DNA of 8,799 bases, taken from the IMG/VR virus record IMGVR_UViG_2534681774_000024. One strand, given 5' to 3'. The stretch comes from a virus (Duplodnaviria; Heunggongvirae; Uroviricota; Caudoviricetes). Positions within the stretch are counted from its first letter, which is position 1. The number at the start of each line of letters is the position of its first letter. Below the pieces are notes generated by a model that worked only from the letters and a program-made list of their open reading frames with translations, was not told where the DNA came from and ran no database searches. This document shows positions 5,645 to 8,799 of this stretch, piece by piece. A program made the position numbers and the translations under genes.

Positions 5645-8468
5645 ATGACGGCAGAGTACATCAGGGACTGGCAACAACCGCGCCACGCAGTGGGACGTGA
5701 AGGAACGGGGATCCCCGTTCCTGAATCTGCGCTTTCTTCCTGGCTGGATGCCTACCGGGCAGAGAACGAGCGCCGCCAGGAAATGGCTGATGCGGCGTTC
5801 TCCGCCACGCCGCTGGGCAACCTGATTAATAAAAGCCTGGATGCACAGGAAAAACAGGACAAAACCATCACACTGGCAGGAGACGCCAGAAAACAGGCAC
5901 GCGGCGCGGTGGATGAAGCCATGGCCTCGCTGCGCCTGCTGCCGTCCTATCTGCGCGATCCGCTTATTCGCCACCTCTCCTTCCTGCGCAAAAAACAGGA
6001 AGTCGATCGCCGGAAAGGCAAAAAGAGCTGGCAGGCTGAACGCTACGCGCGCGGAACCCTGCGCAAAATATTCGAACGTCTGGACCGCACCGACCACCGC
6101 TGGCTGACACCGGGTTATCGCTCCCTTGCCGGACGCGAACGCCTGGATGATTTGCTTTACCTGCCGCAGCTCAACAAGCACCAGATACAGACGCTGGCCA
6201 CCATGACGGCGGCGATGTTCAGCAGCACCTTCGAAAAACTCTGCGATGGCTTTGGCGCGACTGATGGCGAACTGACCATGGATGTAACGCTGAAGGCGTA
6301 TCAGATGCTGGCCCGCATGGCGTTACACCTGCACGCCATGCCTCCACATTATGACGCACTGACAACAGACAAAGACCGGAGGAACGAACCGGACACGGAG
6401 CTGCTGCCGGGCGCAATCCTTCGCCTGACCTGTGCGGAATGGTGGAAACGCAAACTGTGGCTGTTACGTTGCGAGTGGAGAGAAGAACAACTCCGCGCCG
6501 CCTGTCTGGTTTCCAGAAAAACATCACCCTATCTGAGCCAGGACGCGTTAAGCGAGTTTCGCGCACAGCGCGAGAAAACACGCGATTTCCTGAAAAGTTT
6601 CATGCTGGAAAATGAAGACGGGTTCACGATTGATCTCGAGACAGTGTATTACGCGGGAGTAAGTAACCCGGTTCACCGTAAGGCAGAAATGATGGCCACC
6701 ATGAAGGGACTGGAACTTCTGGCCGAAGCCCCGTGGCGACAGAGCGGTGTTTCTGACTGTCACCTGCCCGTCAAAATACCACGCAACAACGGAGAACGGT
6801 CATCCGAACCCCAAATGGAACGGGGCCACCATGCGCGACTCCAGCGATTACCTGGTTAACACGTTTTTTGCGGCGGTCCGCAAAAAACTGAACCGCGACG
6901 GCCTGCGCTGGTATGGCATCCGCACGGTGGAGCCTCACCATGACGGAACCGTGCACTGGCATATGATGGTCTTTGCCCATCCGGAAGAAATCGACACCAT
7001 TGTGTCCCACACCCGCGATATTGCCATTCAGGAAGATCGTCACGAGCTGGGCGATGATATTACTCCGCGCTTTAAGGCGGAGTATGTAGACGGCTCAAAA
7101 GGCACGCCAACCAGCTACATCGCCACCTACATCGGAAAGAACCTGGACAGCCGCGCCGTGGATGGCATCGACCCGAAAACGGGCAAGCCACGCGTTGACC
7201 ACGAAACAGGAAAATCAATGGCCGAGAGCGTGGAGCGCGCCATCGGCTGGGCGCGCCTTCACCGGGTCCGCCAGTTCCAGTTCTTTGGCATTCCCTCCCG
7301 TCAGGTGTGGCGTGAACTCCGCCGCCTTGCCAGCCAGATGGCACGCAACCCGGAAGGCCCGCAACGGCTGAAGGATGACGCAATGGATGCGGTTCTTGCT
7401 GCCGCTGATGCCGGGTGTTTTGCCACCTACATTGAAAAACAGGGTGGCGTACTTGTTCCGCGCAAGGACTACCTGATTCGCACCGCCTACGACCTCGCAG
7501 ATGAGCTGAACGATTACGGCGAACAGAGTGTACAGATTTACGGGATCTGGTCGCCATTCATCGGGGAATCCTCCCGTGTGTGCACGCATCCGGATAACTG
7601 GAAGCTGGTAAGACGTAAACCGGAAGCGGAGGACAGCGCCCGCGAAAATGGTTTTGACCTTCAGGGCGGCCCTGCCGCCCCTTGGACTCGTGGCAATAAC
7701 TGTCCCCGTGTACAGGAAACGGACAACAACGGGACAGAACAGTCGGAAGAACGGCCAGCACCGTGGCCGCAGCTCCCTGACGGCGTTGAAGTGAACGAAT
7801 GGATGCGCTCACTGAAACGGCACGAACGCCGGGCGCTGATGCGTTCGCTTCGTGACAAACAGGCAAAAAACAGCAGTGATGAAATGCAGAGCTGGACACA
7901 GAGCCGCAAACAGCAGTGGCCTTTGCCTGATAACCACGAATTACTCGCTAAAGAATGGCGGAAGTCTGCTGAATCTCTCGGCCTGCATATCGGTGAACAA
8001 CAGATGCAGCACCTGTTACGGGGCGGCAGTCTGTACGTTGACGGCAGCATCATTGCACCGCAGGGATTTGAAATTGTACGCAAACCGGATACCCGCCCGG
8101 ACAGTCGAATCACGCAGCTCTGGCAGCGCCTGAGCCGTAATCATGGCGTAAGCAGCACGGAGATCCGCCATAACCCGGTCGCCAGCTATCTGGCACAGCT
8201 GGGGGCATCAGACCCTGAAGCCGCCGCACGCCTGGCATCCACACTTCAGCAGGACCAGAACACCATGAAAACACCCGTTACCGTGCTTTCTGACATGCTG
8301 CGCGCCATCCGCGACGCAGAGCACGCACAGAGAATCAGTGAAATCACTGAACGCGCCAGCCGCAAAGCAGACCTGCTGCGGGGTGGCCTGACCAGCGGAA
8401 ACAAAAAACAGACAGAAACGGGACTCACGAATCCCGTAAATGAGCAAAAAACGCGCAGCGATATATGA
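5645..8468 (+). pseudogene. A: P2 gene A-type rolling-circle replication initiator (HUH endonuclease), read in two frames with a frame change near 6729-6732
   Basis: ORF 5645-6859 (frame 2) and ORF 6747-8468 (frame 0) overlap by 113 nt. The downstream part carries FLTVTCPS, the HUH motif in GTVHWHMMVF, and a paired-tyrosine motif TSYIATYIGKN, matching what I recall of the P2 A / Phage_GPA family. Frame 0 is open from 6705. Removing one C from the CCCC run at 6729-6732 gives a continuous reading ...[27 protein letters not shown]... The 6747 start in the ORF track is a GTG inside this reading. Confidence 0.75.
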
Positions 8469-8513
8469 AGCGCGCACAAAACAGGCAAAAACGGGATTTC
8501 AGAATCCCGTAAA
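8402..8513. repeat. Two ~38-bp direct repeats (8402-8440 and 8477-8513), each with a palindromic core ACGGGA-N8-TCCCGT
   Basis: Copy 1: CAAAAAACAGACAGAAACGGGACTCACGAATCCCGTAAA, inside the 3' end of gene A. Copy 2: ACAAAACAGGCAAAAACGGGATTTCAGAATCCCGTAAA, intergenic; here the stem is a perfect 8 bp (ACGGGATT / AATCCCGT) with a 4-nt loop. On the minus strand each hairpin is followed by a T-run. Confidence 0.7.
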
Positions 8514-8544
8514 CGATTAATTAATCAACATAAGGAAAAGCGAC

Positions 8545-8799
8545 ATGAAAATTTGTATCGACGACGGCTCCACCAACATCAAGCTGGCATGGACTGAGAA
8601 CGGCGAATGCCGCAACGCCATCAGCCCGAACAGCTTCAAGTCGGAATGGTCTGCGCCGTTCGGTGGCTCGCAGCCTGCGAACTACATGCTTGATGGCGTG
8701 CGCTATGGTTTTGATCCGGTCAGCGATCGCTTTGTCCAGACGACCGACACGCAATACCAGTACAGCGATGTGAATATAATCGCCATTCACCACGCGCTG
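8545..8799 (+). CDS. parM: ParM/StbA-like actin-family ATPase, N-terminal 85 codons (3' end beyond the window)
   Basis: ATG 8545 with AAGGAAAA about 8 nt upstream; open to the window edge and in frame. The translation MKICIDDGSTNIKLAW...ISPNSFKSEW...YQYSDVNIIAIHHAL closely parallels the N-terminus of plasmid R1 ParM as I recall it (MLVFIDDGSTNIKLQW...WQYSDVNVVAVHHAL). It is not in the ORF track because it has no stop within the window. Confidence 0.8.
   Translation, partial: MKICIDDGSTNIKLAWTENGECRNAISPNSFKSEWSAPFGGSQPANYMLDGVRYGFDPVSDRFVQTTDTQYQYSDVNIIAIHHAL

Follow-up and report, generated by a model that had tools for sequence, protein, structure and literature searches.

The DNA considered here is a stretch of 8,799 nucleotides taken from the IMG/VR virus record IMGVR_UViG_2534681774_000024. 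It is called the window in what follows and corresponds to the early region of a P88-like prophage (genus Xuanwuvirus, Peduoviridae, P2-like). Gene A, which encodes the P2-type replication endonuclease gpA, is followed there on the same strand by the 5' part of a gene for the actin-like segregation ATPase ParM, and two repeats with palindromic cores lie at the junction of these genes. ParMRC is the textbook actin-like segregation machine, and its characterised centromeres are direct-iteron arrays on plasmids. In our assessment, the repeats are likely to be a cis-acting site bound by the adaptor ParR, that is the parC-type centromere of a type II (ParMRC) partition cassette, and they are probably an operator as well.

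A pair of repeated dyads ahead of parM

A repeat search of the window returned a family of direct repeats with two 42-nt copies (8402-8443 and 8475-8516), which are 81% identical and start 73 bp apart. Each unit is made of an A-rich left flank followed by a 20-nt dyad. The first copy falls within the final 22 codons of gene A (stop codon at 8466-8468), and the second within the 76-bp intergenic leader between gene A and parM. The second dyad ends 21 nt before the Shine-Dalgarno sequence TAAGGA and 35 nt before the parM ATG (8545), and T-rich runs follow both hairpins on the minus strand. The first-pass annotation of this DNA had described two palindromic elements of about 38 bp spaced by about 75 bp, one in the last codons of gene A and the other in the parM leader, each followed by a T-run on the minus strand. 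The coordinates confirm this placement and a terminator pattern scan agrees on the T-runs, with the length now set at 42 nt and the spacing at 73 bp.

Written as the pattern ACGGGA-N8-TCCCGT, the dyad has exactly two matches in the 8.8-kb window, and no further match appears even when two mismatches are allowed. The chance expectation for this pattern in the window is 0.22, and at least two loose matches were obtained in 4 of 200 shuffles. Apart from the repeat pair, the strict pattern is absent from the first 18 kb of P88, the C/Cox control and late-promoter regions included.

The genes that follow the repeats are best described from phage P88, where gene A (940 amino acids, aa) is succeeded by parM, a 103-aa gene, a variable cargo and the portal gene. 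The full-length P88 ortholog of ParM matches the ParM protein of R1 (1MWK) with an E-value of 9e-93, and the 103-aa protein matches Plasmid_stab_B (PF10784; ParR/StbB family) with an E-value of 1.6e-24. Behind parM, P88 and all related loci examined encode a PF10784 protein of 101-134 aa. The ParM and ParR-family matches, found in this order, therefore define a type II partition cassette (parMR). When ParR was compared by sequence with solved structures, no relative was found. Of 5426 complete Escherichia coli genomes, 1321 contain the junction between gene A and parM at 90-100% identity, and it is 95-100% identical in P88 and 13 other phage records (14 in all).

Conservation of the repeats was evaluated at increasing distances from the window. 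Between E. coli (P88) and a first Hafnia locus (L092), the copies are 81% and 86% identical by hand count, the higher value being that of copy 2, and the GGGAT and ATCCC cores are unchanged; for the same two lineages, identity at four-fold degenerate sites amounts to 63% for parM and 49% for gene A. The repeats, being more conserved than synonymous sites in this comparison, are selectively conserved, as expected under purifying selection. The ParM relatives at 54-63% identity all come from P2-like prophages (Hafnia, Plesiomonas, Serratia and Enterobacter), where they lie between gpA and the portal gene, in the tin/old slot of P2. A second Hafnia locus (L103, ParM 62% identical) carries GGGATTGAGGAAACCC and GGGTTCATTAAATCCC, 73 bp apart, and a Plesiomonas locus (L104, ParM 63% identical) carries GCGGGACAACAAAAACCCGA and GCGGGACAACACTAACCCAC, 72 bp apart. 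Flanking sequences of these two loci are otherwise unalignable, and the cores, their spacing and their distance to the parM ATG nevertheless persist. Expressed as GGG-N10-CCC, the two sites stand at -125/-52 from the ATG in the window, -124/-51 in L092, -128/-55 in L103 and -131/-59 in L104, with respective spacings of 73, 73, 73 and 72 bp. Dinucleotide shuffling of the upstream region of L103 or of L104 gave no comparable pair in 20,000 shuffles. Among 48 distinct site variants, the GG and CC are invariant, and the flank AACAGGCAAAAACGGGA of copy 2 recurs unchanged in a Serratia locus (L105). The comparison of this junction across P2-like prophages, proposed in the first-pass annotation, finds the pair, its spacing and its position kept together with parMR down to 62-63% ParM identity. 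Almost no further members of the Hafnia and Plesiomonas lineages came up when viral contigs were scanned with their ParM sequences, and a metagenome scan returned mostly P88-like loci.

The spacer between the copies holds a short direct repeat of its own, CGCGCA, found at 8453-8458 and 8471-8476 (18 bp apart) and bracketing the gene A stop codon. Both copies read CGTGCA in L092, that is, they changed together, and nothing comparable is present in L103 or L104. Two other candidates encountered in the course of the motif searches were rejected. The sequence GGGATAACCTCATCCC, present in some portal alleles, has dissimilar flanks and was treated as a chance match. Dispersed palindromes of the repetitive extragenic palindromic type were discarded as well, the window containing two copies only and P88 two copies plus one isolated intragenic match. 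Coordinates of all features are collected in Table 1.

Table 1. Features of the gene A-parM junction and of the preceding gene, in window coordinates
Feature	Coordinates	Strand	Remarks
Repeat copy 1	8402..8443	.	42 nt, reference copy, within the final codons of gene A; homology of L045 to P88 resumes here
Dyad core 1, ACGGGACTCACGAATCCCGT	8418..8437		GGG-N10-CCC at 8420-8435, -125 from parM ATG; proposed distal ParR-binding site
Spacer between copies	8444..8474		gene A stop codon (8466-8468) and CGCGCA repeat; unconserved in distant lineages
Repeat copy 2	8475..8516	.	42 nt, intergenic leader
Dyad core 2, ACGGGATTTCAGAATCCCGT	8491..8510		GGG-N10-CCC at 8493-8508, -52 from parM ATG; proposed proximal ParR-binding site or operator
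parM leader	8517..8544	+	conserved TTAATCAA block; Shine-Dalgarno TAAGGA (8531-8536)
parM 5' part, actin-like segregation ATPase	8545..8799	+	Pfam StbA_N, E 2e-41; continues past the window end
Gene A, P2-type replication endonuclease	5645..8468	+	3' end reads into copy 1 and spacer; frameshifted at 6729
Homolog of P2 origin nick region	7660..7705	+	GCGGC..GCCGC..GGA.TC.TG.CAATAACTGT alignment; about 740 bp upstream of the repeats

Inheritance of the repeats with parMR and with the ParR type

Three different upstream open reading frames (ORFs) read into the repeats, namely gene A of the P88-like phages, a 155-aa ORF in the locus L045 and a 167-aa ORF in L103. In L045, a gene A with a different C-terminus is followed by the unrelated 155-aa ORF, and nucleotide homology to P88 restarts at the first bases of copy 1; this ORF consequently shares the same 21-residue tail. 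The position of the repeats hence explains why unrelated ORFs upstream of parM end alike. In L092, the stop codon of gene A is located inside the centre of dyad 1, so the remaining region is non-coding, yet it is still conserved. In L103, the sites are spanned by the unrelated 167-aa ORF. No such motif is found after gene A in P2 and Fels-2, where gene A is present and parMR absent. On plasmids, the region (151 bp) was found only within copies of the same prophage, and no independent plasmid occurrence was detected. As judged from this distribution, the repeats are part of the par cassette and not of gene A. The notion of a scar at a cargo boundary, put forward in the first-pass annotation, stands in so far as the par module of L045 is bounded on its left by copy 1; it does not hold for the module itself, as parMR is conserved in the lineage and is not variable cargo.

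The presence of the sites was then related to the type of ParR in a survey of 251 loci carrying a ParM gene, a pair being defined as two GGG-N10-CCC sites 70-75 bp apart. The pair was detected in 161 of the 211 loci whose ParR displays the strand RRISFYLKP, in all five loci with the close variants RRVSFYLKP, RRISFYLNP, RRISLYLKP and RRISYYLKP, and in four of five loci with an unreadable ParR; it was missing from all 31 loci with a different ParR N-terminus. The RRISFYLKP loci devoid of a strict pair presumably carry single-base variants such as TCCTG. Leaving the loci with an unreadable ParR apart, the pair therefore occurs only beside a ParR with the N-terminal strand RR[IV]SxYLxP. This association is drawn at the clade level and is for that reason not separable from common descent, yet it agrees with the prediction for a cognate pair of adaptor and site.

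Within the P88-like group, ParR is a mosaic protein. Its N-terminal part of about 45 aa, which includes the strand TRRISFYLKP, and its last eight residues (NIRALFPE) are constant, and the linker exists in several classes, with identities of 83%, 57% and 52%. The strand, which would contact the DNA, is invariant throughout this group and the diversity resides in the linker, so that covariation between site and ParR is seen at the clade level only. The mosaicism was observed in the ParR genes of L089-L100. A second, partial ParR gene lies downstream in one locus and a parM fragment follows parR in another (L089 5602-5910; L095 4309-4437). Together with the mosaicism, these fragments point to recombination between par cassettes.

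Assignment of the site and competing readings

The strict motif is confined to the repeats in the window and in the first 18 kb of P88, and the pair tracks both parMR and the type of ParR and keeps its position; a ParR-bound site is for these reasons the reading that best fits the comparative evidence. A ParR-type operator or centromere was also the leading proposal of the first-pass annotation, and it gains support from the presence of a true ParM downstream, of ParR in the relatives, from the joint inheritance of site and cassette, and from the deep conservation of motif and spacing. The dyads have the form (C)GGGA-N8-TCCC(G), with half-sites separated by about one helical turn, and the distance of 73 bp amounts to about seven helical turns, which would place both dyads on the same face of the DNA. 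The proposed mechanism can be summarized as follows. Dimers of ParR, a ribbon-helix-helix adaptor, would bind the half-sites, with two dimers on each dyad. The ParR-DNA complex formed in this manner would capture the growing ends of ParM filaments, and the filaments would drive the circular phage genomes away from each other. When ParR occupies the proximal dyad, which ends 35 nt upstream of the ATG, the expression of parMR would probably be limited as well. Binding by ParR, its stoichiometry, autoregulation and segregation activity are what we infer from these comparisons.

A number of results weigh against this assignment. A third exact CGGGA-N8-TCCCG, CGGGACATCTCTTTCCCG, is found in the tape-measure gene of P88 (L268 12281-12298; approximately 30280-30297 in P88). 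Its flanks are dissimilar and the estimated chance of an exact match in the genome is about 0.04; it could be a stray ParR site or a coincidence, and is treated here as chance. No sigma-70 promoter was detected between or beside the sites in four lineages. The same scan misses the known par promoter of R1/R100 (L102 25480-25720), and negative promoter scans carry little weight on that account. The phasing of A-tracts is not significant either: AAA periodicity peaks at 10.2 bp with p of about 0.16 against dinucleotide shuffles, in a test which is weak even on the R100 parC control (p of about 0.08 only). In E. coli and in the closer Hafnia lineage (L092), the sites look like minus-strand terminators. 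The link between site and ParR type, as stated above, is seen at the clade level only, where shared ancestry is not separated. The architecture is the most visible departure: two dyads (four half-sites) are present here and no iteron array, unlike in R1 parC, and a weight matrix derived from the ten iterons of R100/R1 gave no more hits in the interval 8395-8545 than in shuffles. The sites of the nearest relatives outside the P2-like phages, namely the prophage D6 and the plasmids described in the last section, are AT-rich arrays of many short direct iterons extending over 150-250 bp.

Other readings of the repeats have to be considered beside a ParR-bound centromere. The dyads could bind another protein, such as gpA, a host nucleoid protein or a different phage regulator, and serve in the regulation of the A-parM junction. 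This is unlikely, although ParR as the ligand is a partner that we infer, gene A of P88-like phages overlaps the sites at its end and, among the other genes, gpA alone is found upstream in all lineages examined. It is the distance to the parM ATG that is fixed, and not that to gene A, from which the sites are separated by one ORF in L103 and likewise in L045. P2-like phages which possess gpA without parMR (P2, Fels-2) are devoid of them, and the homolog of the gpA nick region is located elsewhere (7660-7705). The lack of the strict motif in the C/Cox control and late-promoter regions, and the way in which the presence of the sites follows the N-terminal type of ParR, argue in the same direction.

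The hairpins could also be intrinsic (Rho-independent) terminators of the minus strand, shielding gene A from antisense transcripts of the variable cargo or of the late P-Q operon. The pattern scan calls both of them terminator-like, with 8-bp stems, a 4-nt loop and T-rich tails, the minus-strand RNA folds at -10.2 and -11.3 kcal/mol (z of about -2.5), the same minus-strand calls are obtained in L092 and the A-rich left flank, which is the minus-strand U-tract, is itself part of the direct repeat. The function is nonetheless distinctly unlikely. No minus-strand gene ends at the hairpins, and parM and parR, both on the plus strand, separate them from any minus-strand gene; P88 moreover has hairpins of its own directly after parR and after the portal gene. 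In L103 and L104, where the motif pair is kept, the predicted stems drop to between -3 and -5 kcal/mol, compared with about -10 in the window, the A-run upstream is reduced to 1-3 of 8 positions and the scan finds no terminator. The 48 site variants amount to 384 pair cells, 34 of which are unpaired; the central G-C pairs are constant and broken pairs go uncompensated. Since the pair, its spacing and its position persist in L103 and L104 in the absence of a stable hairpin and of the A-run, the conserved feature is a motif of double-stranded DNA, with its spacing and position, and not the hairpin. The terminator alternative of the first-pass annotation accordingly describes a pattern that is present here and in L092 and is lost farther away, and it would be prudent not to label these hairpins as terminators in annotations.

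A plus-strand RNA element, acting as a processing or stabilising structure in a polycistronic A-parM early transcript or in the translational control of parM, is very unlikely. The plus strand does fold at -9.0 and -11.2 kcal/mol (z of about -3.3), the common variants A8491G and C8508T retain G-U pairs on that strand and parMR may share a transcript with gene A, as no promoter was detected. Other variants, however, produce mismatches on the plus strand and wobble pairs on the minus strand only, so that neither strand is consistently favoured, and pairing is lost without compensation in L103 and L104. Dyad 2 is clear of the Shine-Dalgarno sequence and of the start codon, and no Rfam family matches the repeat region. 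Covariation as a mark of RNA structure was likewise discarded, as changes on both sides affect 4 of the 384 pair cells, with a marginal excess over shuffles that comes from G-U types.

It is highly improbable that the repeats are a functionless duplication or a recombination scar left by the insertion of the par cassette beside gene A. Copy 1 does coincide with the homology breakpoint in L045, and the par cassettes are visibly recombinogenic in view of the mosaic ParR, the extra ParR fragment and the parM fragment. A neutral scar would have decayed; both copies are instead more conserved than synonymous sites, and the pair persists, with its spacing and position, down to 62-63% ParM identity among unalignable flanks. 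Finally, the origin-related reading of the first-pass annotation, by which the repeats would be part of a P2-type replication origin or secondary gpA sites, has next to no chance of being correct, for although the P2 origin is annotated inside gene A, its annotated nick lies 427 bp before the end of that gene, the homolog of the nick region is found at 7660-7705 and not at the repeats, and P2 and Fels-2 have no such dyads. The segment 7660-7705 (GCGGC..GCCGC..TTGGACTCGTGGCAATAACTGT), inside gene A, is likely to be the replication origin of the phage of the window.

The P88-like and related P2-family phages integrate into the chromosome and yet all retain an intact ParM-ParR cassette with this proposed minimal centromere of two dyads, and a conserved partition system of plasmid type is puzzling in such phages, which are carried by roughly one in four complete E. 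coli genomes. P2-type phages package monomeric circles. It is a tentative possibility, which we would not put higher, that the cassette drives the active segregation of the phage genome in its circular form, whether excised or replicating; four half-sites seven helical turns apart would then suffice for a filament-capturing complex. Segregation, if it does take place, could sustain a plasmid-like carrier state or distribute monomeric circles. A circular E. coli record of 34,461 bp deposited as a 'plasmid' (L005, NZ_CP148288.1) contains the gpA-parM-parR region together with a terminase gene and has the size of a complete P88-like phage genome. This record may represent an episomal form and is compatible with an episomal state.

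Two further observations concern the neighbouring genes. Compared with P88, gene A of the window contains a 1-bp insertion at 6729 (an extra C, GCCCCG instead of GCCCG), which splits the 940-codon gene into ORFs 5645-6859 and 6747-8468; either the gene is a pseudogene in a decaying prophage or the insertion is a homopolymer sequencing error. Downstream of parR the gene content varies strongly, with HicAB, a HigBA-like pair, a KAP NTPase, SSB and a ClpX zinc-finger protein among the genes found.

Comparison with known partition sites

The par loci of R1 and R100 are organized in the same order as the locus described here, with the cis site first, then parM and then parR. The R1 ParM is homologous to P88 ParM over its full length, and the R100 ParR belongs to the same family (PF10784), its strand reading RRTIAFKLNP where RRISFYLKP is found here. 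In both cases the parM Shine-Dalgarno sequence directly adjoins the site, and R100 and the window have CATAAGGA in common. R1 parC resembles the present site in its A-rich top strand and in its repeated units with a CCC/GGG triplet, and GGGTTTT, to which the end of the R1 iteron is complementary, is similar to the half-site GGGATTT, a likeness seen by eye which is not a statistical match. R1 parC is a region of 159 bp in which ten direct 11-bp iterons are arranged in two blocks of five around the par promoter; the R100 parC sequence, retrieved for this comparison, likewise displays ten A-rich 11-bp iterons ending in (A)ACCC around a promoter, as described for R1. Here, by contrast, the distal site is embedded in the upstream coding sequence and no promoter can be recognised, and the host replicon is an integrating P2-like prophage, whereas R1 is a low-copy plasmid.

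The nearest relatives outside the P2-like phages are the parMR genes of D6, a P1-like plasmid-prophage, and of IncFII and IncL/M plasmids, whose ParM proteins are 48-53% identical. As in the window, parR follows parM and repeated motifs are found upstream of parM. The iterons are of the TCTCA type in D6 and of the TTTCTATAT type in the IncFII and IncL/M plasmids, the N-terminal strands of ParR differ and the replicons are true plasmids. Closer to the window, P2-like prophages of Serratia and Enterobacter (L105, L106, L109 and L110) carry the cassette in the same slot between gpA and the portal gene, with ParM proteins 54-58% identical. Their site is built on CGGGAAC half-sites, and the L105 flank, as mentioned above, is the same as here. 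In place of two compact dyads, these loci display one long inverted repeat, GGGAAC..ATAGAAAAAT-N26-28-ATTTTTCT..GTTCCC; the GGG-N10-CCC pair is absent and the ParR strand reads NRKISFYLKP. The centre of this inverted repeat is occupied by a small GC palindrome (L105 3375-3480; L106 3383-3450; L109; L110), the letters of which differ between loci while palindromy is kept (GCCGC-CA-GCGGC versus AGCCG-GA-CGGCT).

The operators of ribbon-helix-helix repressors such as Arc, CopG, omega and ParG are composed of short inverted half-sites about one turn apart. The dyads have the same general form, which would accommodate two ribbon-helix-helix dimers next to each other on the same face of the double helix. 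Those operators are single sites overlapping a promoter, in contrast to the two dyads seven turns apart found here, which would be used in a partition complex that captures filaments. Intrinsic terminators share a stem-loop and a T-rich tail with the repeats and differ from them in that no transcription unit ends at this place. Taken together, the site shares the context of parC and departs from it in the lack of an iteron array; on the sequence evidence, it would be a different architecture of a known kind of centromere. The layout of this candidate centromere is unusual, new and very compact, with two dyads 73 bp apart that are partly embedded in the preceding gene, and it raises the question of the minimum DNA on which a ParR complex is able to capture ParM filaments.

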